The notes: a model not told the origin generated them from the letters alone. DNA of 64,000 bases from an uncultured Planctomycetales bacterium (GCA_964520655.1 CAZFNI010000001.1:3067-67066), one strand, 5' to 3'; positions 1-57,261 are shown, counted from the stretch's first letter. Program-made: numbers and translations.

Positions 1-1
1 T

Positions 2-33722: not shown

Positions 33723-33843
33723 TTTGTTCTGATTTTTTCAAGAAAGCGTTTTCTTGATTTAATGCTCACCGCCTTGACACCATATTCTCCATATGGCATA
33801 CTTACTTTTGGTAACAGCAACCCATTAATAATAAAGAAGAAAC

Positions 33844-36800
33844 ATGAGTAAAACTTTACAAAAAGCACTGCGCATATTCATCAGCTTGACCTTTATCTTA
33901 AGCTCGGTATCCTTTTCCAAGGTCCAGGCCGGTGAGATCGTTGTTCCCCTGATGCCCAAACCCGGCACGATCGTCAATTTAAGCCCGATGTATAATCCGG
34001 CCTTTTTAAATGGGTTAGTCATCCATCCGGACAATGCTTTGGAGTTTGATTTCTTGATCCGCAAGGGCGACGGCAATTTGGACATGCCACAAAAGAATCA
34101 GGAGTATACGAAGCTGGTCAAATATTTCTTAGCATCGTTGACCATTCCCGATGAAGACCAGTGGGTTAACTTGTCTCCTTATGAAAACGACCGCATCATC
34201 AAGGACAATTTTGGCAAGACGGAAATGGGGCGTGACCTGTTAAGTCAGGATTATCTTCTTAAACAGATCGCTTCGTCATTAATGTATCCCGAGAGTGGTT
34301 TGGGAAAGAATTTCTGGGACAAGGTTTATGAAAAGGCCTATCAGGAATTCGGCAACACCAATATTCCGGTCAACACTTTCAATAAGGTGTGGATCGTCCC
34401 GGATGAAGCTTCCATTTATGAAAGCGGCAATACCGCCTATGTGGTCAAAAGCCATTTGAAGGTCATGCTGGAAGAAGATTATTTGTCCTTGGAAAAGCAC
34501 TCTGCTGTCAGTGAAAAACCTAATAAAACACACGCTTTATCGTCTAAAGTCATCAAAGAGATCATCTTGCCGCAGATCGAGCGCGAGGTCAATGAAGGCA
34601 AGAATTTTGCCCAATTGCGTCAGATCTTTTCCGGGATGGTGTTGGCCACCTGGTATAAAAAAGCGCTGCGTGAATCTTTGTTGGGAAAGATTTATGCGGA
34701 CAGGGCCAAGGTCGCTGGGGTGAATCAGGACCCAGCCAACAATGAGAAAATTTACCAGCAGTATCTCGCCGCTTTTAAGAAGGGTGTTTACAACTATATT
34801 AAAGAAGACGTGGATCGTTACACCAATCAGATCATCCCCAGAAAGTATTTCTCCGGCGGGTTTGTCAATCAGCTGGATAGGGCCATGGTTGTGACCAAGG
34901 TGAATGAAGGGGCCTTGGCTCAGGCGGTTAAGGTTCAAGGGCCGTCGGATATGGACAGGGCGACGGTTTCTTTAAAAGGTGACCAGGAGCGGATGGACGC
35001 AGCGATGAGAACTTCTTCGGACTTGCCAGGGGTCAATCCGGTGGTTTTAAACAAGCAGCCCGCGATGCCGCCCATGGGATCTTTGAGTTTACGTGAATTA
35101 AGCGCTTATGATCAGATCAGGCTAAATAACAAAGGGATCTTGGATAAGTCCATTACTATTTCTGGTGTTGACGGACAGATGCTTCGCTACACGCTCATGG
35201 GGCAGCGCGCAGAAGTTTATTTCAGGCCTGTAGTCAGTTTTTCTTACCGGCAGCATGAGAACGATCCTGCAAAGAAGGTTTTCTATGCGATCGGTTATGA
35301 ACCGGTTAGCTTGGGGGATCGTAATAATTTTAACCTCCGGGTCTTTTACAGGTCGGAAGATGAGACGTTATGGAGATCGTATACTCCTTCGAATATAAAC
35401 TCTGTCGATGATCTTAGTGTGGGAGAGGTCGTGACTGGCCCACTGCAGCGTGATCTGGGCAGGCTTGAGGATGAGGGGATCGAGAACGGGAATGACCATA
35501 CTGGTTTCCGTCTGGCTGTTAATGATATTTTGGTTAAAAGGCAGAATGATGACAAGCCGATCAATGGTTTTTCAAAACCGGAATTTGTCCCTACCCGTTT
35601 GGAAGATCAGCCGGAGATAAGCAAAGACAATATTGTCGACGCGTATAACAGGGCAGGGGTGCCCTTTCTAGTGCTTTCATCAAGGAATAAACAGTATCGA
35701 TGGACGTTCGCGCAGAGATCAGGATATGTTGATGTGGTGCAAGTGGAAGATCTGAGGGCTGGCATCACGGGGCCCCTGGGTTTGCAGGGGAGGAACATTC
35801 CGTGGACTTTGCCGCCTGTGTCCGAGCAATCGTGGTCGTCGCTAACCCAGCCGAACGCGCTCCCGTTCTTAAAAGATGTCATGGCATTGTTCAATCGAAA
35901 TAATTCTTTTGAGATCAGTAAAGCAGGGGTGACCCCTGTCTCATTTGCCGATATCCTCAAAGCCCCTGTGATGATAGAGCTGCCGTCAGGCGATGTGCTG
36001 CGGTTATCAATGGGTCTGGACGGCCGGCTGATTGTTTCTGATGGGCAAAGTTCTCATGCGGTACGCAGCGGCGAGACCGTTACGTATGGGGCTCGGGCAG
36101 ATCTACATCACGGGTTAACGGTGTTGGAGCGTTTGGGTCCTAGATCGGGTGTTTCACAAGCACACTTTACCTTGACAGTGGGGCAGGATGATCAGGGTCG
36201 AGGGATGAAGGGTTATGTTTGGATCAAAGACGGGGCTTATGCGAAAGACGGTGTGACCACCGAGGAGATCCGTAACTTTGTTGCGGCAGCCAATAAAAAC
36301 CCGGAAGGGGTCACGAATTTCTTTAGATGGATGGCGAATTTAGGTTATTTAGGTGTGGTCGAAGGGAATGTTAGACTTTATAAGCTGTTCAAGGCGCCGG
36401 TGGAAGACCCTGCTTTTGCAAAGACCAGAGTGGCGATGCAAGAAGCTTTGGGGGACGAATTAACAAATGCGCTTCTTGCGACATACTTTCAACGGCCTTC
36501 GACCAATGGGTCGGTGATCAGCATGTACAGCGATGCGGCAATGGCGAGCAGACGCACAGCGATCGCATCTCTGGCCGCATCGATGCTGTTAACCCGTGAT
36601 GCCAGCGGGCAAGCGATCAATCGGTCGAGTTTTCTGGATATTCAAGATTTTATGTTTAATTTTCACGCTCTTACAGATAAAAAACGATTAAGTGATGCCG
36701 ATCGTGAAACATTAACAGCAGGCATGTCTTTTCTGGCCCAGCAGCCTCAGTTTCCTCTGGATGCGACAAAAGCCAAAGTATTTGCAGAACGGTTAAATGC

Positions 36801-38274
36801 TTTTTCTGCGTATAAGTCTGCTTTGGAAAAGCATGGTTCAAAGGAACAGGTCCAACAGTACAATGTTCTTCTAGGCACGATGTTCCTTGGGTTTTACAAG
36901 CCAGGATTTAGTGAGGAAGTAAGCGGCGATGATAAACAGATCGCTGTTGCTTTAGATGACCGCAAGGTTTTTGTGGAATATGCCAAACTCTATATTGATC
37001 CAGCGATGGCGGGGATGACTGTTGCGGATCTGTCTGATAAAGGAAAACAAATATATGCGGCGATCGGTCAAGTCTCGCAAGAGTCTGGTCCATCTTTTGA
37101 GGTTGCGCTGGAAACCGTAAATTCGCAAGTCAGAGCCGCGATCGCGTTGTATGAGCAAGTGCAAGGCATGTCAACAGGGAATTTATTGCCTGCAGTCGAG
37201 AGGGCTTTTCTAACCCGCTATCTTGTTGGGGAATTAGTGATGCCGCGCATTAAGCGGGGGGCGGCGTTGTCGTTGGATAATGTGAAGAATATTGGATTGG
37301 TGCCCAATGAAGTCACAGCGGAGATCATTAAACAAAGTGACTCGGCCATGGCGGCGGGTAGAGATGCGGCGAAGGCAACTTTTGTAAAAGGTGTTATAAA
37401 GGGCGTTGGTATGCGGGGTGGATTTGTTACGGATCAATTGCCTGATTTTAATCCTGATATTAGTATTTTACCTGCGGTTACAATATCAGGCATAAGATCG
37501 ACAGCTTCCGGATTAGCCATGAATTCAGGTGTACCAGTGCCGAAAGCAACTCCGGAACAATTAGCTGAATTAAGAAAAGGGCTTGACGCAGGGGATGGTC
37601 TATTTATAAAAAGTGCCGCTATCCCAGAAGAAAAAATAGTTGGTAAAAAGATCATCGCTGTAGCGGAGAATGGGCAAAGAACATCTGGAGTTGGTGTGAG
37701 AATAACCAATGGGTTGGTCGGAATAGAGGTTCCTGTCATAGTCTCGATGCCTCAGGTTGAATTCAGAAATAAATTACAAACAGCCTTATCTGGATCAAAG
37801 TTTGATCCAATGATGGTCTTTAATCGATTAAGAGCCCAAGAGGTGATATCTGTTGATGCCAATGAGGTCAAGGTAAAAGAAGGAAATACAACGGTGATAT
37901 TAACAGATGCGGGATTTGAACCGCAATTAACATCACTTTTAAGACCGTTCTTAAAAGAGTTTAATAAAACTGAAGTAAAGGGTGTAAAACCGGCAGCCTT
38001 ACTTGATAGTGATGGTAATGGGATTTGGCGCGCAAATCAAGCTATGTCTGCTGATAAAAAAGGTGGTATCGACTTAAACGCGGCGAATTTGAATTTCCAG
38101 ATCAAGCGCGACGGTCGCGGCGTGCCGCTGCCTTTGCCTCAGCAGGATATGAAAATGCTTCAGGGCATTGAAGGCTTTATCCCCACCATCCTTGAGATCA
38201 AACCTGTCACCACGCTGCCCATGTTCAGTTCTCTCAAAGAAAGCGAAACACAGGTGCTGGCCAGCGCCTCATAA
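33844..38274 (+). CDS. Giant hypothetical secreted protein (1476 aa), signal peptide, no internal repeats, no recognisable catalytic motif
   Basis: Uninterrupted 4.4-kb ORF with N-terminal MSKTLQKALRIFISLTFILSSVSFSKVQA signal; upstream TTGACA-N17-CATACT promoter-like element (33774-33802). Confidence 0.7.
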   Translation: MSKTLQKALRIFISLTFILSSVSFSKVQAGEIVVPLMPKPGTIVNLSPMYNPAFLNGLVIHPDNALEFDFLIRKGDGNLDMPQKNQEYTKLVKYFLASLTIPDEDQWVNLSPYENDRIIKDNFGKTEMGRDLLSQDYLLKQIASSLMYPESGLGKNFWDKVYEKAYQEFGNTNIPVNTFNKVWIVPDEASIYESGNTAYVVKSHLKVMLEEDYLSLEKHSAVSEKPNKTHALSSKVIKEIILPQIEREVNEGKNFAQLRQIFSGMVLATWYKKALRESLLGKIYADRAKVAGVNQDPANNEKIYQQYLAAFKKGVYNYIKEDVDRYTNQIIPRKYFSGGFVNQLDRAMVVTKVNEGALAQAVKVQGPSDMDRATVSLKGDQERMDAAMRTSSDLPGVNPVVLNKQPAMPPMGSLSLRELSAYDQIRLNNKGILDKSITISGVDGQMLRYTLMGQRAEVYFRPVVSFSYRQHENDPAKKVFYAIGYEPVSLGDRNNFNLRVFYRSEDETLWRSYTPSNINSVDDLSVGEVVTGPLQRDLGRLEDEGIENGNDHTGFRLAVNDILVKRQNDDKPINGFSKPEFVPTRLEDQPEISKDNIVDAYNRAGVPFLVLSSRNKQYRWTFAQRSGYVDVVQVEDLRAGITGPLGLQGRNIPWTLPPVSEQSWSSLTQPNALPFLKDVMALFNRNNSFEISKAGVTPVSFADILKAPVMIELPSGDVLRLSMGLDGRLIVSDGQSSHAVRSGETVTYGARADLHHGLTVLERLGPRSGVSQAHFTLTVGQDDQGRGMKGYVWIKDGAYAKDGVTTEEIRNFVAAANKNPEGVTNFFRWMANLGYLGVVEGNVRLYKLFKAPVEDPAFAKTRVAMQEALGDELTNALLATYFQRPSTNGSVISMYSDAAMASRRTAIASLAASMLLTRDASGQAINRSSFLDIQDFMFNFHALTDKKRLSDADRETLTAGMSFLAQQPQFPLDATKAKVFAERLNAFSAYKSALEKHGSKEQVQQYNVLLGTMFLGFYKPGFSEEVSGDDKQIAVALDDRKVFVEYAKLYIDPAMAGMTVADLSDKGKQIYAAIGQVSQESGPSFEVALETVNSQVRAAIALYEQVQGMSTGNLLPAVERAFLTRYLVGELVMPRIKRGAALSLDNVKNIGLVPNEVTAEIIKQSDSAMAAGRDAAKATFVKGVIKGVGMRGGFVTDQLPDFNPDISILPAVTISGIRSTASGLAMNSGVPVPKATPEQLAELRKGLDAGDGLFIKSAAIPEEKIVGKKIIAVAENGQRTSGVGVRITNGLVGIEVPVIVSMPQVEFRNKLQTALSGSKFDPMMVFNRLRAQEVISVDANEVKVKEGNTTVILTDAGFEPQLTSLLRPFLKEFNKTEVKGVKPAALLDSDGNGIWRANQAMSADKKGGIDLNAANLNFQIKRDGRGVPLPLPQQDMKMLQGIEGFIPTILEIKPVTTLPMFSSLKESETQVLASAS

Positions 38275-39591: not shown

Positions 39592-40640
39592 AGGTTTATT
39601 GTTATAAATTAATGACCGATCGTACCTGCGGGGTCTTAGACAGTCTGGTCAAATGTGTGATGTGGTTATTAAGTCTGCTGTATGGCGGGCTGGCGCTGGC
39701 CAGGCGGAGGCTTTATGCGTCAGGAGTGCTGCGCGCGTACCGAGCTTTAAAACCCGTGATCAGTGTTGGAAATATTACTCTTGGAGGTGCTGGCAAGACA
39801 CCGCTGGTGATCGCCATTGTGGAGGCCTTGCAGCAGCGGCAATTAAGACCGGCCGTATTGATCCGCGGGTACATGCCCCAGGGCGAGCTCTACAGCGATG
39901 AGGCATTGATGTTAAAACAGCGGCTGCCTGGCGTTCCGATCTTGACTGGGGCCGACCGCAGCCGCAGCATTGAAGATTGTTTGAAGCATCACGCGGTGGA
40001 TGTGTTTGTTTGTGATGATGCTTTCGGACATTTGCAGATGGCCAGGGATTTGAATATCGTCGCGGTCAACGCGGCAGACCCTTTTGGCAACGGCCATGTT
40101 GTTCCACGGGGTATCTTGCGCGAACCACTTGGGGCATTGGCTGACGCGGATGTATTCGTCGTGACAAAATCCGACCATCCTGACGGAAAGCTCGATCTGT
40201 TGACCCGAAAACTGAATGCGTTCGCGCCTCGATCGCTGGTGGCCACATCGATCCATAAACCGATCGATTGCGTGGATGTTTTTAGCGGATCACATATTGA
40301 TCTGTCGCATTTTAAAGGGATCTCTGTTGTCGGATTTTGCGGGATAGGAGATACCGGTGCGTTCCGGCATAGTTTGCAGCAAGCCGGATTTCAGGCGGTC
40401 AATGTCTTTGGGTTCATGGATCACCATAGTTATAGTGCCCAAGATATGGTCCAGATGCGCAAATGGGCACAGGAGCATAATGTCGTCAACATCATCACCA
40501 CTCATAAAGACGCGGTCAAGCTGGCGGCGTTTAAGGATATTTGGGATGGTTTTAAAGTTTATTATTTAGCGATAGGTCTGGAAATCACGAATGGCAAGAA
40601 TGTCTTCCTTGAAAGAATCATGTCTGTTGTGCGTCATTAA
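39582..40640 (+). CDS. lpxK: Tetraacyldisaccharide 4'-kinase
   Basis: ISVGNITLGGAGKTPLVIAIVEAL P-loop typical of LpxK. Confidence 0.85.
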   Translation: MSLKVYCYKLMTDRTCGVLDSLVKCVMWLLSLLYGGLALARRRLYASGVLRAYRALKPVISVGNITLGGAGKTPLVIAIVEALQQRQLRPAVLIRGYMPQGELYSDEALMLKQRLPGVPILTGADRSRSIEDCLKHHAVDVFVCDDAFGHLQMARDLNIVAVNAADPFGNGHVVPRGILREPLGALADADVFVVTKSDHPDGKLDLLTRKLNAFAPRSLVATSIHKPIDCVDVFSGSHIDLSHFKGISVVGFCGIGDTGAFRHSLQQAGFQAVNVFGFMDHHSYSAQDMVQMRKWAQEHNVVNIITTHKDAVKLAAFKDIWDGFKVYYLAIGLEITNGKNVFLERIMSVVRH

Positions 40641-42576
40641 GTTCACGGCGGCTGTATTCCGTTTGCTTCCTTACCGCATGGCACTCGCGATAGCCCATGT
40701 GTTTGGGAATCTTTGTTTTTATGTGCTGCCGAAAAAAAGACGCATCATTACCCGTAATTTGAAAATAGTTTTTGCCGCATTGAAGACCCCTCAAGAAATC
40801 AGGGCATTAACACGCGCTGTATTTATTTCCGTTACAAAATCTTTTGTTGATGTCATGTGTCTGCCCAAGATCAAGAAGGAGGGTTGGAAGAATTTTGTCC
40901 GTTTTGAGGGGGAGGAACATATTCAAGATGCGCTTGCCAAGCAGAAAGGGCTTATTCTTGTCGGGATCCATTCTGGCAGTTGGGAATTGGCCAGTTTGGT
41001 CGGGAGTACGCTGGGATATGCTTACAATGTTGTGGCCAATGAACAGCCGAAAGTGCCCCGGATCAACGATCTGTTGACTCAGTATCGGGCGGCAGCGGGC
41101 GCAAAGATCATCGCCCCTGGAACCGGAGTAACGCGCGACATCATTCGGGCTTTGCAGAATAATGAACTTGTTTCCCTGGTCCTCGATCAGGGGGGGAAAG
41201 AAGGTGTGATCACTGATCTTCTGGGCAGAACGGCATCCATGTCCACAGGAGCGCTGCGTTTAGCTCTCAAATTGAAGGCCCCAATATGTCCGGTGTGGAT
41301 CGAACGCCAGGCCGATGGTCTCAATAAACTGCGAGTGCTCAAAGCGTTGGATCTGAGAGATCTGGATGATTCTGCGGCGGGCCTGAAAGAGGCGCTGACA
41401 CGGGCGGTGAAGATCTTTGATGAATTGTTGAGGGCGCATCCGCAGGAGTATTTGTGGTCCTATAAAGTGTTTAAATATTCAAACCAGGCCGGTGTTCTGA
41501 TCATTGACGACGGAAAGACCGGACATTTGCGTCAGTCCGAGGCGGCGGCCGCTAAACTTTCTTCAGTGCTCAGGAAAAGAGGTTTTGCCGTAAGTCAGAA
41601 GTCGGTACGCATCGAATTCCAAAGCCGCTTTAAAGCTAGAATGTTCGCGCTGTATGTTTGGGTATTGTCTTTAAGCGGGCTTGATGCGGATGAAAGTGAT
41701 TTGTCATTTTTTTTGACCCCTGAGGCGAGTGAACGATTATTCAAAGAGCGGGCGGACTGGGTTATTTCCAGCGGTTCAGCGGCGGGGGGGATCAATTTCT
41801 TCCTTAAACGTTGTTTGGATATTCGCTCTGTCTGCATCCTAAAAGCAGGACTTGTTCCCTGGAGGCATTTTGACCTTGCCATCGCTCCTGAACATGACCA
41901 TAAAAACGACGTCAAGGGGGATCGGACCATTTATACCAAAGCGGCATTGAATGTGATCACGCCGGCGTATTTGAGAACACAGGAAGAACTGCTGCTGTCG
42001 CAATATTCCCATTTAAAGGGCAATGTCCGTTTTAAGATCGGTGTGCTATTGGGCGGTAATACGAAAGGGGTAGAGTTTGATGAAGTCCAGATACGCTTAC
42101 TTGTCAATAAGCTCAAAGAAGCCGCGGTTCACTATAATGCGGATATCCTGATCACCACCTCCAGGCGGACGCCGCCCGAGGTCGAGGGGGTTGTTCTTAA
42201 AGAATTGAAGAATTTTGAACGCACCGCGTTATGCGTCATCGCTAATTCCAATAATGCTCCATATGTCATGGGCGGGATCTTAAGTTTAAGCGACCTGGTG
42301 ATCGTCTCTGGTGAAAGTATTTCCATGGTCTCGGAGGCTTTGTCCTCAGGCAAGCGCACCATCGTGTTCAAACCCGTGGGGACGTATGACCAGAAAGAAG
42401 CTGCTGATAAATTTGACCGTTTTGTGATGGGCTTAAGCGACCAGGGATTTGTGTTGGCCTGTTCGATCAAAGAGGTTGCCAACGGGATCACGAAAATGAT
42501 GAGCAATAAGATCGTCCTAAAAACATTGCCGGATAATGCCTTGGTCGAAAAAGCGTTTGAGAATATGCTGTCATGA
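40591..42576 (+). CDS. Fusion: lipid A late acyltransferase (LpxL/HtrB family) N-terminal domain + ELM1/DUF1022-like C-terminal domain (661 aa)
   Basis: N-terminus LLPYRMALAIAHVFGNLCFYVLPKKRRIITRNL and HSGSWE (HxxxxE/D acyltransferase motif). C-terminal half starts VLIIDDGKTGHLRQSEAAAAKL, matching the bacterial ELM1-family N-terminal signature (xLSDGKAGHxNQSxG). Start could be 40591 or ATG 40678. Confidence 0.7.
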   Translation: MARMSSLKESCLLCVIKFTAAVFRLLPYRMALAIAHVFGNLCFYVLPKKRRIITRNLKIVFAALKTPQEIRALTRAVFISVTKSFVDVMCLPKIKKEGWKNFVRFEGEEHIQDALAKQKGLILVGIHSGSWELASLVGSTLGYAYNVVANEQPKVPRINDLLTQYRAAAGAKIIAPGTGVTRDIIRALQNNELVSLVLDQGGKEGVITDLLGRTASMSTGALRLALKLKAPICPVWIERQADGLNKLRVLKALDLRDLDDSAAGLKEALTRAVKIFDELLRAHPQEYLWSYKVFKYSNQAGVLIIDDGKTGHLRQSEAAAAKLSSVLRKRGFAVSQKSVRIEFQSRFKARMFALYVWVLSLSGLDADESDLSFFLTPEASERLFKERADWVISSGSAAGGINFFLKRCLDIRSVCILKAGLVPWRHFDLAIAPEHDHKNDVKGDRTIYTKAALNVITPAYLRTQEELLLSQYSHLKGNVRFKIGVLLGGNTKGVEFDEVQIRLLVNKLKEAAVHYNADILITTSRRTPPEVEGVVLKELKNFERTALCVIANSNNAPYVMGGILSLSDLVIVSGESISMVSEALSSGKRTIVFKPVGTYDQKEAADKFDRFVMGLSDQGFVLACSIKEVANGITKMMSNKIVLKTLPDNALVEKAFENMLS

Positions 42577-44660
42577 ACATACTGCAGATCCTCCCAGAAC
42601 TCAATGTAGGCGGGGTAGAGACCGGAACGGTTGATTTCGCCAAATACTTAATGGCAAACGGCCATAAGCCCGTCGTTGTTTCCAATGGAGGCGTTCTAGT
42701 TGAGGAATTAAACAAGATCGGCTGTACCCATTATGCGCTGCCCGTCCATAAGAAAAATATTTTTACGTTCCTGTCTTGTGTTAAGCAGCTTGTTCTGATC
42801 ATTCAGAAAGAAGATATCCAGATCGTCCACGCACGTTCCCGGGTTCCCGCCTGGGTCGCTTTTTTTGCCTGCCGTAAGACCAATGCGGCCTTAGTCACCA
42901 CTTGTCACGGGTATTATTCATCGCATTTTTTTAGCAGTCCGATGGGGTGGGGGAAGAGGGTCATCGCGATCTCCGAGGTGATCGGACGGCACATGGTCCA
43001 TGATTTCGGCGTTCCAGCAGACATTGTGAGGATCATCCCTCGCAGCGTTGACCTCTCCCGTTTTCAGATCAAGCGTGCGGATAAACCAGCCAATGCGCCT
43101 AAGGTCATTTCGATGATCGGCCGTCTCACGCCGCTTAAAGGTCATCCGTATTTTTTAAAAGCCATGTCGCTGGTTGTCCGTCATATGCCTAATGTCCGTA
43201 TCCAGATCATCGGGGATGCTCCTGTAAAAAAGAAAGCCTATAAAGATGAACTGGTGATGCTCACTAAGAGGCTGGGATTGTCCGCGCATGTGGAATTTCT
43301 AGGCAATCGCCGGGATATACCGCAATTACTGGCGCAAAGCGATTGTCTTGTGCTGTCGACGATCACCCAGGAGGCGTTTGGGAGGGTCATCCTTGAGGCG
43401 CAGGCCGCTGGTGTGCCTGTTGTGGCGACCAAGGTCGGAGGGGTTGTTGAGATCATTGACGATGGTCAGACAGGGCTGTTGGTGATGCCTAAAGACCCTG
43501 AAGGCATGGCCAAGGCTGTGGTCCGAATCCTCGGGGATCCGCAAATGGCGGCGCATCTAGTCGAGGGATCGCAAAAACGCATTGATGAACGATATACGAT
43601 CAAGCATATGGCTGATGCAACGCTGAATGTTTATCAGGAAGTCCTGGATGCCCGCAATATATTAGTCATTAAGCTGACAGCGCTGGGAGATGTGGTGCTG
43701 ATCACTGCCGCCCTAAAAGCGTTGCGCGAAAAGTTCCCAAATGCCCGTATCCACTGCCTGACATCGCCGGAAGGATCAAGTGTCCTACAACGCTGCCCGT
43801 ATATTAATAATGTGATCATTTTTGATCTTAAGCACAAGAATCTGAAATCGGAATGGGAGCTGGGTCGTGATCTTCGGCGTTACCGTTTTGATGAAGTGAT
43901 CGATCTGCAGAATAACCGTTTAAGCCACAGGCTGTGTTTTTTGAGTTTTGCCAAAATGACGCTGGGTTTTGATAACGGCAAGTTTTCACTGCTGTTGTCT
44001 AACCGTATCAAGAATGATGAGCCTTTGCTGCCACCTGTTGAGCATCAGTTCAAACTGCTTAGGCACATGGGCATTCCCTATGATAAACATGCACGGCTGG
44101 AATTATGGCCGTCGCCAAAAGATGAGGAATATGCGCAAAGTCTGTTGGATGGAGAGTGGCTGGGGAATGTGAAAGACATGGTGGGTATCAATGTGGCGGC
44201 CTCTGACCGCTGGCCCAGCAAAAATTGGCCGATCGATCATTTGGTGAAACTGTGCGACTTGCTAGCCTCTCGGAATATCCGTGTGTTCTTGACGGGGCAA
44301 GCTAAAGATAAAGCAGCAGCACGGGCGATCGTTGCTAAAGCGCGATCAAAACCTTCGGATATGACGGGGAAGACCAATATTATGCAGTTGGCCGCGCTGG
44401 TGGGGAGGGCCAAGGTGTATCTGAGTGCTGATTCGGCGCCGCTGCATGTGGCAGCGGCGATGAACGTGCCTGTGGTGGCTCTATTTGGGCCCACGGATCC
44501 CAAACGGCATATGCCGCCGATCGGCCGCGGGGTCGTGATGCGCCAACCTATGAAATGTTCTCCGTGCTACAGCGGGACGTGCAAGATCAGCACACACGCG
44601 TGCATGAAGCAGATCACGGCGGAAGATGTGCTGGCGAAGATCAAGGAATTAATGCGATGA
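42573..44660 (+). CDS. Fusion: GT4 (GT-B, RfaG-like) glycosyltransferase + GT9 (ADP-heptose:LPS heptosyltransferase-like) domain (695 aa)
   Basis: N-terminus MNILQILPELNVGGVETGTVDFAKYL and EAFGRVILEAQAAGVPVVATKVGG (GT4 E-x7-E region). C-terminal half ILVIKLTALGDVVLITAALKALREKFPNARIHCL (GT9 N-terminal signature). Confidence 0.75.
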   Translation: MNILQILPELNVGGVETGTVDFAKYLMANGHKPVVVSNGGVLVEELNKIGCTHYALPVHKKNIFTFLSCVKQLVLIIQKEDIQIVHARSRVPAWVAFFACRKTNAALVTTCHGYYSSHFFSSPMGWGKRVIAISEVIGRHMVHDFGVPADIVRIIPRSVDLSRFQIKRADKPANAPKVISMIGRLTPLKGHPYFLKAMSLVVRHMPNVRIQIIGDAPVKKKAYKDELVMLTKRLGLSAHVEFLGNRRDIPQLLAQSDCLVLSTITQEAFGRVILEAQAAGVPVVATKVGGVVEIIDDGQTGLLVMPKDPEGMAKAVVRILGDPQMAAHLVEGSQKRIDERYTIKHMADATLNVYQEVLDARNILVIKLTALGDVVLITAALKALREKFPNARIHCLTSPEGSSVLQRCPYINNVIIFDLKHKNLKSEWELGRDLRRYRFDEVIDLQNNRLSHRLCFLSFAKMTLGFDNGKFSLLLSNRIKNDEPLLPPVEHQFKLLRHMGIPYDKHARLELWPSPKDEEYAQSLLDGEWLGNVKDMVGINVAASDRWPSKNWPIDHLVKLCDLLASRNIRVFLTGQAKDKAAARAIVAKARSKPSDMTGKTNIMQLAALVGRAKVYLSADSAPLHVAAAMNVPVVALFGPTDPKRHMPPIGRGVVMRQPMKCSPCYSGTCKISTHACMKQITAEDVLAKIKELMR

Positions 44661-50688: not shown

Positions 50689-51432
50689 ATGAAGCAAATA
50701 GCGTTCTTCTTTTTGAGTTTTAGCCTTTTGCTGGGCGGTGTAAGCTATGCTGTCCCTGCCTCAGAATTTGCCAAAAATAATCCCGACATCCAGAAATATG
50801 AATATGTCCGCAGTTTTATTGCGGCTTTAGTGTACATTAAGGCGGTGCATGAACGCTGGCACCGCTCAAGCCCTGTTAAAGATCTTAAAGGGGCCAAAGA
50901 CGTTACCGTCATGCGGGGTTTTCTGTCTTATCTGATCAAGGATAATGCGGACTTAAGAGTGGCGAAGAATTATATTGCGCCGTACCTAAACTCGCCTAAT
51001 GCGTTGATCAAGAAATCTGCCGATTCCTTCATTGTGGGCTGCAATACGGTCATTGGGATCAATGATAAAGAGAAGCAGATCTGGGATCAATGGAACGCCA
51101 TCAAAAGCACTGGTCTGGGGACGCGCAAGAATGAAACGGCGTTTCTGGATGCACAGGTAGAGCTCGCTCTTAAACGCAAAGAGGCGTTTAAGAATATCAT
51201 TGCCGCCAGCGTCATGTTGACCAAGATCCTGCGCAGCGCGTCCAATGTTGATGAGAAGGGTAAGCAGTTAGCCATCACTGCCGTGCAGCGCAAACGATTG
51301 TTGAAAAGTCTCGATGAGGTTGGCAAAACGAATTTAGACTGGGGATTAAAGCCAGGTCAAACATTTCAGCAAGCTTCCGTCGCCGTGTTAAGAGAGATAC
51401 TTGAGGACCCGATCTATAAATCCCTGCCATGA
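50689..51432 (+). CDS. Hypothetical secreted protein (signal peptide), 247 aa
   Basis: MKQIAFFFLSFSLLLGGVSYA signal; tightly coupled between receiver gene and addA-like gene. Confidence 0.5.
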   Translation: MKQIAFFFLSFSLLLGGVSYAVPASEFAKNNPDIQKYEYVRSFIAALVYIKAVHERWHRSSPVKDLKGAKDVTVMRGFLSYLIKDNADLRVAKNYIAPYLNSPNALIKKSADSFIVGCNTVIGINDKEKQIWDQWNAIKSTGLGTRKNETAFLDAQVELALKRKEAFKNIIAASVMLTKILRSASNVDEKGKQLAITAVQRKRLLKSLDEVGKTNLDWGLKPGQTFQQASVAVLREILEDPIYKSLP

Positions 51433-54400
51433 GCGGTTTTAAAGAATACTCTCAGGTCTGCGTGGTTAACGCTTCCGCCGGAAGCGGAAAAACTTACGCG
51501 CTGGCCAAACGCTATGTGCAGATCCTGCTTGTCACCTCCCTGAAGTCTCCGCAAAGTTTGAAACATATCCTGGCGATCACTTTTACGAATAAAGCCGCAG
51601 CACAGATGAAAGAGCGCATCATCACGCTTGTGAAAAGAATAGCCTTGGGAAAACTGTCCGGTAAAGAGGTTAGTGAGATACTGGATCCTTTGGGAATGGA
51701 TGCCCCCCAGGCCAAGCAGGTGGCTGGGGCGGTCATGGAAGACATCATTCGCTACTACCATTATTTTAACGTCCAGACGATCGATAGTTTTATGAATACA
51801 CTGCTTGCCGGGTGCGCGTTTAAGATAGGTCTATCGGCCAAGTTCAAGATCGAGCGGGATTCCATGGAGTATTTGCTGTTAAGTCTTGATTCTTTGATCG
51901 ATAAATCCCATTTAGATCCGCAGGTCAAGAATTTGTTTGAACGTTTCATCAGTCAGTATTTATTCCTGGAGAATCGCGGGAATTGGTTCCCTAAGGATGA
52001 TCTGCTGTTGGTCATCAAGAGCCTCTTCAAACAGAATAATACTTTTCAGAAAGCCTTGCTGCCGTTTGCCGCTAGCGATAAAGATGTGCATGTTTTAAAG
52101 AAACAGATGATCGGTGTAGTTGGGGAGGTCCTGCCACTGCTGCCCCCAGAGACGGACAAACGCTTTATCAATGCTTTAAAAGAATTCCATGTGGCGCACA
52201 CGCAAGGATTTGATATCGACGCGTTAAGCCGCTATTTTGCCCGAGAGGAGATCCCTGTAAAGGACGATGCCGCGATCCCGTCCCAATGTGTGTCAAAGTG
52301 GCAGAAGGTGCGTTCGCTGTTAAATCAGATCGTATTATGCGAGTCCTATGCTGTTTTTAACCCATACATTGATCTTTACGACGGGGTGATGCGCTGCTTA
52401 TCATTGATCCAAAAGCAGGAGGATATTATTTTCCTCGAAGAGTTGAATAAAAAAGCCGGGGAATTGTTCACGGATGATCTTGTCAGCATCAGCGAGGTCT
52501 ATTACCGTTTGGCCACGCGCTTTGATCATTATTTGATCGATGAATTCCAGGATACGGCCCAGGCTCAGTGGCAGAATATCAAACCTTTGGTGGAAGAATC
52601 CCTCTCTCACGGCGGAAGCCTGTTTTACGTCGGAGATAAGAAACAAGCGATCTATGGCTTCCGCGGCGGCAAGAGTCTGTTGTTCGACCAGCTTCCCAGT
52701 GAGCTTAAAGCCTATGCGGTCAAACAGGAAAACCTGGAGATGAATTACCGCAGCCGCCGTTTTGTGGTGGAGTTCAACAATGAGGTCTTTGCTGGGGAAA
52801 ATCTGATGCGCATGGTCAACGACCTGCAGACCCAGGACCGTTTGGTGGAGAAGGATATTGTCTTTACTGACGAGGACAGACGCGCGATCAGTGATGTCTT
52901 TGCGTTCTCGCGCCAGCAGCCTAAGGATGGATCTCCGTTTGGCCGTGTGCGGGTGGAAATGATTTGCGGCAAGCTAAAGGAGGAACGAACGGAGCTTACA
53001 AAAAGAAAGGTGATCGAGGCGATCGAGGACTGCCGCAAGCGGCATGGCTTAAAACATATTGCCGTCCTGGCACGCAATAATAGTGAGGTCGAGGAGATCA
53101 CCGGCTGGTTAATGGAAAACCGCATCCCGGCAAGGTCGGAGCGGACCAGCGACATCAAAAACCATTGGTTGATCAGGGACATGATGGCATTATTGCGTTT
53201 TTTAAGCGATACGTCCGACAATGCTGCTTTCGCGGATTTTATCACTTCTCCGCTCTTTCTAAAAGCGGCCGGAGAGTCAAAAGAAGCGATGGAAGCGTTC
53301 TTGTTTGAGAACAGGCCGACTAAGTCATCACCTGGTGATTTTGCGTATCATCAGATCTTCAAGCAGCGTTTTGACCGATCGTGGGAGGGATATTTCGCGC
53401 CGTATCTATTGGCGGCGGGGATATACCCATTGTATGAAATGGCTTTAAGCATTTGTCGTCAATTGAACGTCCTTCAGGCTTTTCCAGAGGAACAGGGCTT
53501 TGTGATGCATTGGCTGGAGCTTATCAAGTTAAGGGAAGAGAAAGGCTGCGACCTTGACACATTCCTGGGATATTTCGATGCTCTTGAGGATCAGGAGCGT
53601 TTTGTACCCATGCCGTCATTGGACGCTGTCTCTGTCTTGACCATTCATAAGGCCAAAGGGCTGGAATATGCCTGCGTCATTATCCCGTTCTTGGAAATGT
53701 CGATCAAGGTTGGGGCGGGGGAGAAGAGTGGTGGACAATCTTTTTTGTGGGATGAGACCCCGGAGGGTTTAAGGATGTTCCGCTTAAAAGATCCATATAC
53801 GCGTTTTTGTCCATTGCTCAAAGACCGTTATGCCTATGAATTCAAGCAAAGCTTTATGGCTGAGCTAAATACCATGTATGTGGCGCTAACCCGTGCGGTT
53901 GAAGAAATGGTTGTTTTTATCCCGGAGCGAACGGGCAACAGTGCCAATGCCGCTGCGTTACTGATCCCCGAAAAGCTATACACATATGGCCAGGTACAGC
54001 CGGAGCCTGCTGTTGAGCCAGTTATGGAAGAACAGCGATTGCTGCCCCCCGCTGACATTAAGCCGTGGATCGGGGGCTGGTCGGAAGAATTAACTGCTGC
54101 GTCTACTCAAACGCTTAGAAAACGCCGTCAAGGCGAGATCGTTCACTATTGTTTAGGGCAGATCAAGAACATGCGCGCAGGGGACTTTGTCCGCTTGATC
54201 CAGGATGCTGTTGACTCAGCAGCGGGGTATTATAAGATTTCCCAGGAAAAAGCGTTGTATGAGCAGCTTTTATACAAAACGTTGAGTTTACCGCAATGGA
54301 AAAGATATTTTGAACTGCCACAAGAGGCCAAGGTCTTTTGTGAAATGGAGATCGTTAACGCGCAGGGACAAACGCGGCGCATCGACCGGGTGATCGTGAT

Positions 54401-54545
54401 CGGGGATCAAGTTTCGGCTGTAGACTTTAAACCTCAGGGTGACTTAAGCGGGTATAAGCGGCAAATGGAAGACTATCAGCAATTGTTAACCCAACTGTAT
54501 CCTCAATCGAGAGTATCCGTGACCATTTTAACGTATGAGCTCTAA
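51429..54545 (+). CDS. UvrD-family helicase with C-terminal PD-(D/E)XK nuclease domain (AddA/RexA-like)
   Basis: Walker A VNASAGSGKTYALAKRYV, helicase motifs (DEFQDT, VGDKKQAIYGFRGG) and C-terminal RIDRV...VDFKPQG nuclease motif. Confidence 0.8.
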   Translation: MSGFKEYSQVCVVNASAGSGKTYALAKRYVQILLVTSLKSPQSLKHILAITFTNKAAAQMKERIITLVKRIALGKLSGKEVSEILDPLGMDAPQAKQVAGAVMEDIIRYYHYFNVQTIDSFMNTLLAGCAFKIGLSAKFKIERDSMEYLLLSLDSLIDKSHLDPQVKNLFERFISQYLFLENRGNWFPKDDLLLVIKSLFKQNNTFQKALLPFAASDKDVHVLKKQMIGVVGEVLPLLPPETDKRFINALKEFHVAHTQGFDIDALSRYFAREEIPVKDDAAIPSQCVSKWQKVRSLLNQIVLCESYAVFNPYIDLYDGVMRCLSLIQKQEDIIFLEELNKKAGELFTDDLVSISEVYYRLATRFDHYLIDEFQDTAQAQWQNIKPLVEESLSHGGSLFYVGDKKQAIYGFRGGKSLLFDQLPSELKAYAVKQENLEMNYRSRRFVVEFNNEVFAGENLMRMVNDLQTQDRLVEKDIVFTDEDRRAISDVFAFSRQQPKDGSPFGRVRVEMICGKLKEERTELTKRKVIEAIEDCRKRHGLKHIAVLARNNSEVEEITGWLMENRIPARSERTSDIKNHWLIRDMMALLRFLSDTSDNAAFADFITSPLFLKAAGESKEAMEAFLFENRPTKSSPGDFAYHQIFKQRFDRSWEGYFAPYLLAAGIYPLYEMALSICRQLNVLQAFPEEQGFVMHWLELIKLREEKGCDLDTFLGYFDALEDQERFVPMPSLDAVSVLTIHKAKGLEYACVIIPFLEMSIKVGAGEKSGGQSFLWDETPEGLRMFRLKDPYTRFCPLLKDRYAYEFKQSFMAELNTMYVALTRAVEEMVVFIPERTGNSANAAALLIPEKLYTYGQVQPEPAVEPVMEEQRLLPPADIKPWIGGWSEELTAASTQTLRKRRQGEIVHYCLGQIKNMRAGDFVRLIQDAVDSAAGYYKISQEKALYEQLLYKTLSLPQWKRYFELPQEAKVFCEMEIVNAQGQTRRIDRVIVIGDQVSAVDFKPQGDLSGYKRQMEDYQQLLTQLYPQSRVSVTILTYEL

Positions 54546-57261
54546 GATCATCACCATCCCATTTACCGAGAATTTCATAGCTGCTTTAGCTGGGCTGATC
54601 GATGCGGATCATATCCAGAAAGGACGCGATCTGCGCCGTCTGCAGATCGTTTTCGGCGGGCACCGCCCGTCATTGTTCTTAAAGAAGGAATTATCCACGA
54701 TGATCAAAGGTCCTTTTGTTCCGCCCGTGATCATGACCATTGATGATTTTATCGCTGCCATCAATCCCGGCCGCCGCATGTTATCTGATCTGGACCATTG
54801 TTTGCTGATCCATCATCTCGTCAAAACGCATGTGCCGCAGATCCTTAAAGGGCGGGAAGGGTTTGTGCAGTTCTTGCCATGGGCCAGAGAGATCATTTAT
54901 TTCATTGAACAATTAGACTTGGAAGACACGCCACACGACGCGCTGTTGGCCTTAAAAGCCAAAGCAGCCATTGGCTATGATGTGCCGGATGATATTAACC
55001 AGTTGTTAAAGAGTTTATTTGATCTGCGCCGGGTCTATCATGAGTATTTGGATGCGCATGCGTTGACCAGCCGCGGCTATAGATATCTGCAGGCAAGCCG
55101 TAATATTTCACAGAGGGCATTTGAGGATGTTGATGAGGTGTTGTTCTGCAATTTCTTCTATCTGCACCGCACCGAGAGCGCTGTTATTGGGGACCTGTAT
55201 GCCCGTCACAAGGCTTCACTGATGATCCAGGGAGATCAGCGTCGATGGCCGGCTTTAAAACGTATCGCCCGAGATTTCGGTCAGGAGATCAAAGAGGGGG
55301 CGGTTGTCAGGGAGCCGGGGTTTGATCTGAAATTATACGCGGCTTTTGACACGCATGCTCAGGCGGGGATCGTCAGCGGGATCCTTAACGATATTACGGA
55401 TAAGTCCAATACGGTCATCGTGCTGCCGCAAGCGGAGGCGATGCTGCCGGTTCTTTCGACGATCACGGAGCTGTCAGGAGAGTTCAATGTTTCTTTAGGG
55501 TATCCGCTTAAGCGCAGCGCCATGTATATGCTACTGGATCTGATCATCTTGGCCAGACAGAATATCAAAGAGGGTGGGTACTATTCCCGTGATTATTTAA
55601 AAGTTTTAAGGCATCCGCTGGTCAAAGGGTTGTCCATGGGGCTTTCTCAAGGTGTGACGGGTCTATATGTCCAGCAATTAGAACAGTGTTTGTCTGGAGG
55701 GGTCCAAAGCCCTCTTAACGGCCTTATTTTTATCAGTATCAATGATATTCTAGCGGATGAAGAATTTTTTGATTCATTAGAAAGAGCTTTGTTGTTGAAG
55801 GGGTTGGACGTCAATAAGGCTGCGCTTAAAGAGCTGTCGTCGGTGTTGCATCAGAGATTGTTCGCCTGCTGGGAAACGATGACGTCTTTTTCGGGATTGT
55901 CACGGGTGTTGGAAGACTTTAGTGATTTCATTCATGGTCATAGCGCGCTTTCGGAATATGTATTAAATGAGCATGTGGCCCGCCGATTCATGGATATTGC
56001 TCAGGAATGGGCTGCGGTTGAATTTGATCAAGAGGAGTTGGGGACGCTTGATCTGCTTCGGATCATGCAGGAGCGTTTGGCGCGGGAAGTGGTGGCGTTC
56101 AAAGGTTCTCCACTCAAAGGCTTGCAGGTGCTGGGGTTGATCGAAACGCGGTCATTGAGCTTTGATCATGTTATTGTTCTGGACGTCAATGAAGGGGCCT
56201 TGCCCAATTTGAATATTTATGAGCCGTTGATCCCTCGTGAAGTGATGATCGGGCTTAATATCGACCGATTGGAATTGGAAGAGGAGATACAGCGCTATCA
56301 GTTCATGCGGCTCATCTCTTCAGCCAAGAACGTACACTTGATCTATCAGGAACGACCGGAAAAACAGCGCAGCCGTTTTGTTGAGGAATTGATCTGGCGC
56401 CGGGAATCATCGTCAGGCGAGGTGGGGATCGTTCCAGTAGAGCGGGTATCCTTTGCCTCCAAGCTTAGCCAGCAAACGCGCCAGGCCGCAAAAACGAGCG
56501 CCATGGTCGATCATTTAAAAGGGTTTGTTTTTTCCGCGACCAGCATCAATTTGTATAAACAGAACCCTTATGCATTCTATCAGAATTATGTATTGGGGAT
56601 CAGGCCCAAGGATGATCTCTTGGAAGACCCTCAGCATAAGCATGTCGGGACATTTATCCACGGGATATTAGAAGATGCCTTCAAGCCGTTCTTGGGACGG
56701 ACGCCAGTGTTGGATGAAAGTTTTGACCGGATCGTTCTGGGCATGCTGCAGGAGAGATTTGACGCGCACTTTGGCCGGGGGCAGCGCAGTGACGCATTCT
56801 TGCTCAAGGTCGTTCTGGAGAATCGTTTGTCCAGATTTCTTCAGATCGAGCGTAAGCGCATGGCTCTAGATGTGGATAAGATCCTCTACATTGAGCGAAA
56901 ATTCACCGATACGCTCAATTTACCGTGCGGCCCCGTCCATGTGTCGCTACGCATGGACAGGGTGGAGCAGCTGAACGACGGCACTATCTTGGTCATTGAT
57001 TATAAGACGGGCCAAGTGGACAGCGGATCTGTACAGATGCCCCTGTATCTTCAATATTTGCGCAAACTTTATCCCGGTCTTCCCGTCAATGCCGCGTATT
57101 ATAAATTAAAAGATTTGGCGTTGGATTGTTATATCTCCCCGAGGGATCCTCGCCCCATAGAGGAGGTGCTTAAAGACTTTTTATCCGATCTCAATGTCGT
57201 GATGGAGGAAATATTTAATCAGGAAATCCCTTTTATTGATACAGAGGATGGGATAAAATAA
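54535..57261 (+). CDS. AddB-like PD-(D/E)XK nuclease partner protein (no N-terminal Walker A, no 4-Cys Fe-S cluster evident)
   Basis: C-terminal GTILVIDYKTGQ RecB-type nuclease motif; overlaps the addA-like stop by 11 bp. Confidence 0.7.
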   Translation: MSSKIITIPFTENFIAALAGLIDADHIQKGRDLRRLQIVFGGHRPSLFLKKELSTMIKGPFVPPVIMTIDDFIAAINPGRRMLSDLDHCLLIHHLVKTHVPQILKGREGFVQFLPWAREIIYFIEQLDLEDTPHDALLALKAKAAIGYDVPDDINQLLKSLFDLRRVYHEYLDAHALTSRGYRYLQASRNISQRAFEDVDEVLFCNFFYLHRTESAVIGDLYARHKASLMIQGDQRRWPALKRIARDFGQEIKEGAVVREPGFDLKLYAAFDTHAQAGIVSGILNDITDKSNTVIVLPQAEAMLPVLSTITELSGEFNVSLGYPLKRSAMYMLLDLIILARQNIKEGGYYSRDYLKVLRHPLVKGLSMGLSQGVTGLYVQQLEQCLSGGVQSPLNGLIFISINDILADEEFFDSLERALLLKGLDVNKAALKELSSVLHQRLFACWETMTSFSGLSRVLEDFSDFIHGHSALSEYVLNEHVARRFMDIAQEWAAVEFDQEELGTLDLLRIMQERLAREVVAFKGSPLKGLQVLGLIETRSLSFDHVIVLDVNEGALPNLNIYEPLIPREVMIGLNIDRLELEEEIQRYQFMRLISSAKNVHLIYQERPEKQRSRFVEELIWRRESSSGEVGIVPVERVSFASKLSQQTRQAAKTSAMVDHLKGFVFSATSINLYKQNPYAFYQNYVLGIRPKDDLLEDPQHKHVGTFIHGILEDAFKPFLGRTPVLDESFDRIVLGMLQERFDAHFGRGQRSDAFLLKVVLENRLSRFLQIERKRMALDVDKILYIERKFTDTLNLPCGPVHVSLRMDRVEQLNDGTILVIDYKTGQVDSGSVQMPLYLQYLRKLYPGLPVNAAYYKLKDLALDCYISPRDPRPIEEVLKDFLSDLNVVMEEIFNQEIPFIDTEDGIK

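Follow-up and report, generated by a model that had tools for sequence, protein, structure and literature searches.

A large, unannotated Omnitrophota protein family with constant terminal modules, a hypervariable middle and a predicted export signal, represented at a xerC-waaA junction

A 64,000-nucleotide stretch of DNA (CAZFNI010000001.1:3067-67066, deposited under the name of an uncultured Planctomycetales bacterium; hereafter the window) contains an open reading frame (ORF) of 1476 codons, which is located between xerC and the lipopolysaccharide (LPS) gene waaA. On the basis of sequence comparisons we favor, with moderate confidence, the reading that this gene is a member of a very large, unannotated family of modular Omnitrophota proteins, which are probably exported by the Sec pathway and would carry an exchangeable passenger. 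The family is multicopy and restricted to Omnitrophota. Its architecture consists of a signal segment, a constant N module, a middle punctuated by a [DN]-x-A-M tetrapeptide, and a constant C module, and its members avoid cysteine. At one orthologous locus the middle turns over extremely, and the boundaries of the replaced segment lie on the motif. The position of the gene beside LPS genes results from a lineage-specific insertion and not from an operon relationship.

Results and discussion

Architecture of the encoded protein

The segments of the gene and its upstream region, all on the plus strand and in window coordinates, are as follows.

33774-33802, +: promoter-like element TTGACA-N17-(TGG)CATACT, in the 121-nucleotide (nt) spacer between xerC and the ORF
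33844-38274, +: ORF of 1476 amino acids (aa), ATG start, uninterrupted in a single frame
33844-33930, +: predicted Sec-type signal peptide, aa 1-29, cleavage between VQA and GE (rule-based call)
33931-34869, +: constant N module, aa 30-342, with the invariant RKYFSGG at its end; alpha and beta elements mixed, no known family
34870-35007, +: linker with two D-x-A-M motifs (DRAM, aa 345-348; DAAM, aa 385-388), predicted to be disordered
35008-38034, +: hypervariable middle, aa 389-1397, with no relative, no repeats and no cysteine
36532-36543, +: internal motif D-A-A-M, aa 897-900
36997-37008, +: internal motif D-P-A-M, aa 1052-1055
37339-37350, +: internal motif D-S-A-M, aa 1166-1169
38035-38046, +: junction motif N-Q-A-M, aa 1398-1401, where identity to locus L090 switches
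38047-38274, +: constant C module and stop codon, aa 1402-1476 (GGIDLNAANLNFQIKRDGRGVPLPLPQQDM...GFIPTILEIKPV...ASAS)

A first-pass annotation, made from the window sequence alone, had described the gene as a single uninterrupted ORF for a giant, secreted orphan protein with a signal peptide, no internal repeats and no recognizable enzymatic motif. The ORF is indeed open over 1476 codons from its ATG, self-BLASTP revealed no repeats, and Pfam, NCBIfam, PHROGs, PADLOC and the PDB sequences yielded no match to an enzyme. The signal peptide could be confirmed by rule-based inspection. The N-terminus (MSKTLQKALR, IFISLTFILSSVSF, then SKVQA followed by GE) has, by eye and hydropathy, a positive n-region, a hydrophobic core and a c-region with V-Q-A at positions -3/-1. 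This segment contains the most hydrophobic 19-mer of the 1476-aa protein, in which hydropathy indicated no second transmembrane segment. The protein is identical in every residue to P0312, encoded on a 204-kb NCBI contig, and P0001 from the metagenome-assembled genome (MAG) GCA_041910255.1 differs by D1423N only. The remaining two attributes did not hold. With 1476 aa the protein is not giant for Omnitrophota, where proteins of >10,000 aa are common (bioRxiv 10.64898/2026.06.07.730766). It is also no orphan over ~30% of its length (aa 1-~390 and ~1388-1476), and only aa ~389-1397 are without relatives.

Size, distribution and composition of the family

An initial homology search gave significant matches to at least 3,968 proteins of widely differing lengths, each of which covered 21-32% of the query at 53-76% identity. 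An exhaustive HMMER scan of 1.84 billion cluster representatives (50% clustering) with residues 1-400 as query recovered 8,007 family representatives, 6,279 of them at E ≤ 1e-30. At least 577 family loci were found in reference genomes, and all loci with an informative label belonged to Candidatus Omnitrophota MAGs, some of which were automatically labelled "uncultured Planctomycetales". Among the best 80 loci, CAZNDZ01 accounted for at least 8 copies and JBGAJA01 for at least 13, and 13 of the 80 loci (including L065 and L068) held two to three copies within 10 kb as tandem arrays. The 64-kb window contains no other paralog of the ORF. Only 3 of 2.9 million viral contigs carried the N module. 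In the databases the members are named "hypothetical" or after whichever domain they carry, and neither the family nor its motifs turned up in full-text searches of the literature.

Several entries titled "uncultured Planctomycetales bacterium" (CAZNDZ01, CAZACW01, CAZKUL01 and others) carry many family copies. CAZNDZ01 in addition has an Omnitrophota-type dprA-topA-xerC-waaA block. The Planctomycetales label of these entries is probably wrong or too coarse.

A hydrophobic N-terminal signal segment was present in 129 of 133 complete members. Cysteine accounts for 0.085% of the residues in the family and is entirely missing from 78 of 191 members. The window protein has none among its 1476 residues, compared to 1.15% in the 42 other ORFs of the window (P = 4e-8).

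Constant terminal modules

According to BLASTP, family members have only aa 1-~350/390 and ~1388-1476 in common with the window protein. Its N module is 55-87% identical to thousands of proteins and 76-87% identical to the closest members, and in an alignment spanning paralogs and the phylum the identity was 55-90% over 310 aa. In this alignment the N module ends in IPRKYFSGG, and aromatic residues, glycines and prolines are invariant at dozens of positions. Every invariant column, including W107-V-N-L-S-P, F123-G-x-T and N180-K-x-W-I-x-P, is present in the window protein. The C modules, which are 50-72% identical among family members, follow the alignment consensus GGID[LFM]N.AN..L.IKRDG.GVPLPL.QQDM.QL..I.GF.P.IIEI.PA..LP. 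Of 191 members, 169 have this module ~66 aa before their C-terminus. Residues 1407-1476 of the window protein fit this module and have 12 invariant columns in common with it. The protein thus shows all features used to recognize members, namely the N module end, the C module, a Sec-type signal segment and [DN]-x-A-M motifs.

Remote-homology searches and structure prediction followed by Foldseek had been proposed in the first-pass annotation as checks that might place the protein in a known family. No such family emerged for any part of the protein from Pfam, NCBIfam, PHROGs, PADLOC, phmmer against the PDB or a PDB profile search, for sub-windows searched against Pfam at E ≤ 10, or for the isolated C module searched against NCBIfam and Pfam. 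Those profile matches that did appear were rejected as low-complexity or coiled-coil matches through variable columns. An AlphaFold2 model of the N module, based on an alignment of 100 sequences, showed a mixed alpha/beta structure with long helices (predicted local distance difference test score, pLDDT, 68.9; predicted TM-score, pTM, 0.62). Foldseek found no significant match of this model in the PDB (best E 0.12, TM-score ~0.1, including NheA/MakE/SmhB) and no fold match in BFVD.

The hypervariable middle

Among 5.8e9 proteins, residues 401-1390 matched only themselves, and no similarity was detected to the middles of other members or within 1.3 Mb of Omnitrophota loci. In the 173 members with both modules the middle comprises 13-2,099 aa (median 720), and 103 of these 173 middles resemble no other member's middle. 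As the middle can be as short as 13 aa, some members consist essentially of the N module, linker and C module, and such minimal members have ~485-600 aa. The middles of other members contain Pfam domains such as REC, cNMP-binding, DnaJ, HATPase_c, low-molecular-weight (LMW) phosphatase and methyltransferase as well as LysM, M3 peptidase, HEAT, metallophosphatase and 2-hydroxyacid dehydrogenase.

An AlphaFold2 model of the middle plus C module reached a pLDDT of 47.9 overall and of 72-81 in the C module. The low value for the middle is expected, because this part has no homologs. Its predicted layout is disordered at ~343-445, beta-rich (best at ~703-752), helical at ~806-1187 and alpha/beta at ~1284-1374. 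Comparison of this model with the PDB retrieved the phosphatases YopH/PTP1B (E ~0.02, TM-score ~0.14). This match was rejected, because the catalytic C-x5-R motif needs a cysteine and the protein has none. A match of 28% over 156 aa between residues 1052-1173 and residues 391-542 of the L082 protein (E 1e-4, 24% gaps) was too weak to be used.

Replacement of the middle at the xerC-waaA junction

In the window, dprA, topA and xerC lie upstream of the gene, and waaA, lpxK, a fusion of lpxL- and ELM1-like genes and a GT4/GT9 fusion lie downstream. The block of these neighbors, from dprA to the GT4/GT9 fusion, is conserved throughout the Omnitrophota. The neighborhood of xerC on one side and of waaA, lpxK and heptosyltransferase genes on the other had been recognized correctly in the first-pass annotation. 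None of the best 80 genome loci has waaA beside a family gene. When loci were looked up by WaaA, a family member was found in the same slot of the closest relatives, whose WaaA is 75-83% identical. The arrangement is xerC-[1061 aa]-mazE-PIN-waaA in L082 and L092, xerC-[1052 aa]-waaA in L084, and [435 aa][490 aa]-waaA in L085, where an in-frame TAA splits the family gene.

The slot allows the divergence of the gene to be compared with that of its flanks. Relative to L082 and L084, XerC of the window is 85-87%, TopA 86-89%, WaaA 75-83% and LpxK 65-70% identical; within the family protein, identity amounts to 76% in the N module and 64-72% in the C module, and the middles are unrelated. The BLASTP match between the window protein and the L082 protein stops exactly at M388 of D-A-A-M. 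L082 and L084 compared to each other showed 83-87% identity in the flanks, 68-92% in the N module, 13-38% in the middle and 57% in the C module. A boundary at the nucleotide level was seen with the near-conspecific contig L090, which was obtained from another sample and whose WaaA is 99% identical to that of the window. From the ATG of the junction motif through the C module, the spacer, waaA and lpxK the two DNAs are 94.7% identical, whereas in the 267 nt before this ATG only 12-17 of every 30 nt agree (~45%). The L090 peptide before the motif aligns in position with that of the window (16 of 40 residues identical, pattern LRPxLK...VKP...W). An exact-pattern scan of metagenomes for further alleles of the locus retrieved none.

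Of 14 more distant metagenome loci with the dprA-topA-xerC-waaA-lpxK block, 12 have xerC abutting waaA with 10-160 nt between them; a family gene occupies the slot only in L092 and L097. This predominance of empty junctions identifies the gene as a lineage-specific insertion. The gene in L097 (1167-4895) encodes 1242 aa with six motifs, a REC-like segment and no cysteine. Its C module is a variant (GGIDLDRNKMQMNIKRDGPTIKID...GFDGLEFKIQSMVPVTNLPLILGL), which indicates that at least two C-module subtypes exist. The pair inserted between the family gene and waaA in L082 (9306-9949 of CAZNDZ010000001.1) resembles a mazE antitoxin and a PIN toxin, and suggests that the xerC-waaA junction is a recurrent insertion spot.

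The in-frame TAA of L085 (1306-1308 of JANNCL010000047.1) lies in the middle, and the same frame runs on to a normal C module. The gene could be split or a pseudogene, or the TAA could be a sequencing error. Disruption of the ORF in related genomes, which the first-pass annotation had named as an observation that would refute its reading, was encountered in L085, but the ORF is intact in the window and in the second assembly, where the proteins are identical or one residue apart.

A tetrapeptide at domain junctions

The window protein contains six [DN]-x-A-M motifs, at aa 345, 385, 897, 1052, 1166 and 1398. The frequency of D-x-A-M in the family was 2.2 per 1000 residues against 0.11 expected from composition, and 1.98 per 1000 against 0.147 in the non-family ORFs of the same loci; the motif enrichment was 13-20-fold. 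N-x-A-M was enriched too, and control tetrapeptides were not. Across the family, 147 motifs were located within ~80 residues after the N module, 74 just before the C module and 230 inside the middle, with a median spacing of 153 aa. Where the middle contains recognizable domains, the motifs lie at their borders. Motifs at 515 and 639 flank the REC domain of P0016 (526-632), a motif at 1052 follows the M3 peptidase of P0105 (611-1046), and the DnaJ domain of P0027 (1006-1055) ends at a motif. Apart from position 1055, the last residue of this DnaJ match, no motif fell inside a domain. A search for a DNA-level signal behind D-x-A-M, such as a fused start codon or a ribosome-binding site, revealed no nucleotide conservation beyond the codons. 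We propose that [DN]-x-A-M marks inter-domain junctions, and it may be a processing or docking site.

Promoter-like element and neighboring genes

The promoter-like element at 33774-33802, already noted in the first-pass annotation, is the best sigma-70-type match between 33500 and 38500 (10 of 12 positions, with an upstream TG). The -35 hexamer and TGnCATACT (TATGGCATACT) are kept upstream of the positional orthologs in L082 and L084, with divergent spacer and flanking sequences. The region has no excess of promoter-like matches over shuffled sequences (10 versus 6.9 ± 2.6). The palindrome CCATATGG reported for the spacer of this element is present, but lies at 33789-33796, one base off the coordinates given before, and is not kept as a palindrome in relatives.

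Across the best 80 loci the genes next to family members belonged to generic abundant families, none of them consistent, and no recurrent small downstream ORF was found. Response-regulator genes occurred near family members in 16 of the 80 loci and histidine-kinase genes in 11, sometimes immediately upstream, followed in frequency by ABC ATPases and GT2.

Interpretation and alternative explanations

We suggest the following roles for the parts of these proteins. The constant modules would perform a task common to all paralogs, namely to be recognized at the envelope by a common partner for export, anchoring or assembly. The middle would be a passenger that is exposed on the outside and can be exchanged, and that prey or host surfaces, or phages, keep under pressure to diversify. 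At the xerC-waaA slot, the terminal modules change at the pace of housekeeping genes, and the middle is replaced or rewritten. An exported passenger fits the predatory or episymbiotic lifestyle that has been reported for Omnitrophota (PMC12583861, PMC10066038). The suggestion in the first-pass annotation that the protein works in the envelope or on the cell surface, or is a secreted effector, agrees with the conserved Sec signal, the complete lack of cysteine and the single hydrophobic segment. The position next to waaA and lpxK, on which that suggestion relied, does not indicate a function in LPS or outer-membrane biogenesis, as 12 of the 14 loci have no gene at this position.

Several points weigh against an exported protein with an exchangeable passenger. 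The main difficulty for any extracellular role lies in the passengers of other members, which are often of cytoplasmic domain types (REC, cNMP-binding, DnaJ, HATPase_c, 2-hydroxyacid dehydrogenase). According to preprints, giant Omnitrophota proteins bearing signal peptides or transmembrane segments show the same mix with cytoplasmic-type domains. The predicted localization is derived from sequence rules. The anchoring or export role of the N module is assigned by logic and not by homology, because its structural model is moderately confident and has no structural relative. No conserved secretion or anchoring partner gene was found near family genes in the best 80 loci. The breakpoint shared with L090 stems from one 2.7-kb contig, which could in principle be an assembly chimera, although its peptide before the motif still aligns in position with that of the window and the comparisons among long contigs show the same pattern independently. 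Finally, the N modules of paralogs within one genome have 64-73% DNA identity and share no exact tract longer than 43 nt, and thus do not support recent gene conversion or frequent homologous exchange of cassettes between paralogs.

A bolder version of the exported-passenger reading, which we put forward tentatively and regard as possible but doubtful, is that the N module, the C module and [DN]-x-A-M together form an unrecognized, phylum-wide plug-and-play system for export and display. The two-part scaffold would then dock to a dedicated envelope machine or self-assemble, and the tetrapeptide would be a processing or recombination junction or both, so that arbitrary domains, among them enzymes and regulators captured from the cytoplasm, could be swapped in and shown to, or delivered into, prey. 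If true, this would add a new type of variable-surface or effector system to those of bacteria, and the host range of these nanobacterial predators would depend on it to a large degree.

It is unlikely that the proteins are subunits of a polymer or coat, whose N and C modules would pack together and co-polymerize into a filament, sheath or lattice with the middle as an outward insert. Such a role would account for the strong conservation of the terminal modules, whose identity of 55-90% over 310 aa and dozens of invariant aromatics and glycines exceed what is typical for simple sorting signals. It would also be compatible with minimal members of ~485-600 aa whose middle is reduced to as little as 13 aa, with several paralogs per genome, and with the near-absence of cysteine, as flagellins and S-layer proteins are nearly cysteine-free. 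We found no homology to flagellin, pilin or SLH domains, however, and no assembly genes near the 80 loci, and the predicted export is Sec-dependent, unlike that of flagellin.

Rather improbable in our view is a polymorphic effector polyprotein, in which the N module would deliver the protein to prey and cleavage at [DN]-x-A-M would free effector domains. The conserved C module behind the variable part does not correspond to the usual layout of polymorphic toxins, a small immunity-like gene is not consistently present downstream of family genes, PAAR, Rhs, LXG, CdiA and toxin domains are lacking, and the putative cleavage would have to occur without a known protease for D-x-A-M. The explanation gains from the REC, cNMP, DnaJ, phosphatase and M3 peptidase domains among the passengers of other members, and from the motif itself, which lies in predicted linkers, brackets domains and coincides with the homology breakpoints. 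The demarcation motifs VENN and DPxGL of polymorphic toxins likewise mark where homology breaks. Also in favor of this explanation, cultured relatives within the Omnitrophota are predators (PMC12583861), and proteolytic processing has been proposed for giant proteins of the phylum (bioRxiv 10.1101/2023.11.21.568195).

We consider it very improbable that only the terminal modules are functional and that the ~1000-aa insert drifts as a weakly constrained or decaying segment. The middle has no homolog anywhere, is modeled with low confidence, contains a stop codon in L085, the closest relative, and differs wildly in length among members, all of which speaks for this explanation. On the other hand, ~1,009 consecutive sense codons (aa 389-1397) have remained open in DNA of ~48% G+C, the whole insert is kept free of cysteine, its composition is globular with dense predicted secondary structure and not of low complexity, the ORF is identical or one residue apart in two independent assemblies, and the middles of other members contain intact Pfam domains.

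The function proposed in the first-pass annotation, an envelope-biogenesis or LPS factor coupled to waaA/lpxK, is largely refuted and hardly credible: the gene does lie immediately upstream of waaA on the same strand, an arrangement recurring in L082, L084, L085, L092 and L097, but 12 of 14 loci keep the xerC-waaA block with nothing between, the gene has its own conserved promoter-like element, the mazE-PIN pair parts it from waaA in L082, other family copies of these genomes reside at unrelated loci, and even loci with conserved LPS genes lack conservation in the middle. As family members occur at many loci without consistent neighbors, adjacency does not indicate an LPS role, and the ORF is not part of LPS core synthesis but was inserted beside it in one sublineage.

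Other genes of the window and implications

An ORF at positions 1-6415 (+), which comprises at least 2126 aa and whose frame is still open at the edge of the window, encodes a Gly/Thr/Ser-rich protein with recurring GNVGIGT-like units, 2 cysteines, no Pfam match and no [DN]-x-A-M. It is unrelated to the family with N and C modules and looks like a fiber- or adhesin-type repeat protein. Two fusion genes of the LPS locus, an LpxL-like lipid A acyltransferase fused to an ELM1/DUF1022-like domain (40591-42576, +) and a GT4 glycosyltransferase fused to a GT9 heptosyltransferase (42573-44660, +), are conserved in many related Omnitrophota loci. A UvrD-type helicase of 1038 aa and a PD-(D/E)XK nuclease-domain protein of 908 aa form an AddAB/RecBCD-like pair at 51429-57261 (+).

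Omnitrophota are abundant, uncultivated and ultra-small bacteria that are thought to be predators or episymbionts. Family size, copy number, predicted export, freedom from cysteine and the turnover of the insert between near-identical genomes make these proteins a prime candidate for a variable interface with prey, hosts or phages. The family is invisible to Pfam, NCBIfam and the PDB. The modules and the motif defined here allow thousands of proteins to be annotated with hidden Markov models, and provide peptides to seek in metaproteomes as well as exact breakpoints for testing cassette exchange by population genomics. The position at the LPS locus, which is an insertion scar, also cautions against reading function from adjacency.

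Comparison with known systems

Among known systems, flagellins combine conserved N- and C-terminal D0/D1 segments with a hypervariable D2/D3 center that ranges from nearly absent to >1000 aa and may be an enzyme; they often occur as several paralogs and are cysteine-poor. The family described here resembles them in its constant termini, its variable central insert with sharp boundaries, its paralogs and its low cysteine content. It differs in that the window protein does not match the Pfam models Flagellin_N and Flagellin_C, that members carry a Sec signal whereas flagellins use the flagellar type III pathway, and that the N module is a 310-aa alpha/beta domain instead of a coiled coil. Polymerization of the family is putative. 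The paralogous Sap S-layer proteins of Campylobacter fetus share a conserved terminal anchoring segment, diverge in the remainder, are cysteine-free and serve surface variation. Multiple paralogs, a shared terminal segment and freedom from cysteine are found here as well, but there is no SLH or Sap homology, both ends are conserved, and no inversion-based switching was seen. Sap variation uses one movable promoter, whereas each copy here appears to have its own promoter-like element, as shown for the xerC-waaA locus.

Cargo proteins with C-terminal domains (CTD) for the type IX secretion system, autotransporters and LPXTG, PEP-CTERM or GlyGly-CTERM cargo are alike in having a signal peptide, a variable passenger and a conserved C module of 60-80 aa. 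Neither the whole protein nor its C module matched curated sorting-domain models in NCBIfam and Pfam or contained a hydrophobic C-terminal anchor. The C module is not transmembrane-like and, with only ~70 aa, is too short for a beta-barrel, for which no Pfam domain was matched either; the alpha/beta N module is a large conserved addition, and no sortase or translocon gene is linked. Autotransporters, by comparison, have a terminal translocator barrel of 12-16 strands and about 250-300 aa. Polymorphic toxins (CdiA/VENN, Rhs/DPxGL) also bound a variable module by a short motif. In the present family the motif recurs between all domains, the variable part is internal and a toxin/immunity signature is lacking; Rhs, CdiA, LXG and PAAR domains are absent from the window protein and the gene downstream is waaA. 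RTX and LapA-like adhesins of type I secretion systems differ by their tandem repeats and C-terminal RTX nonapeptides, neither of which was found here (no RTX match in Pfam), and by the Sec-type signal of the family. A phage or viral structural protein is not indicated, with no match in PHROGs and no fold match in BFVD.

The giant proteins of Omnitrophota (Archaeovorins, Dockerin-type; West-Roberts et al. 2023, Nielsen & Lui 2026) come from the same phylum and are mostly sequence-unique. They share with the family predicted signal peptides or membrane association together with regulatory and enzymatic Pfam domains such as PF00072, PF02518 and methyltransferases. They differ in having at least 10,000 aa, and in being often repeat-rich, transmembrane-rich and located beside loci resembling type II secretion systems. 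Members of the present family have 0.5-2.5 kaa, and their N and C modules and [DN]-x-A-M are not mentioned in those papers. Both modules are unrelated by sequence and predicted fold to the libraries searched, while their organization resembles that of known variable exported proteins.

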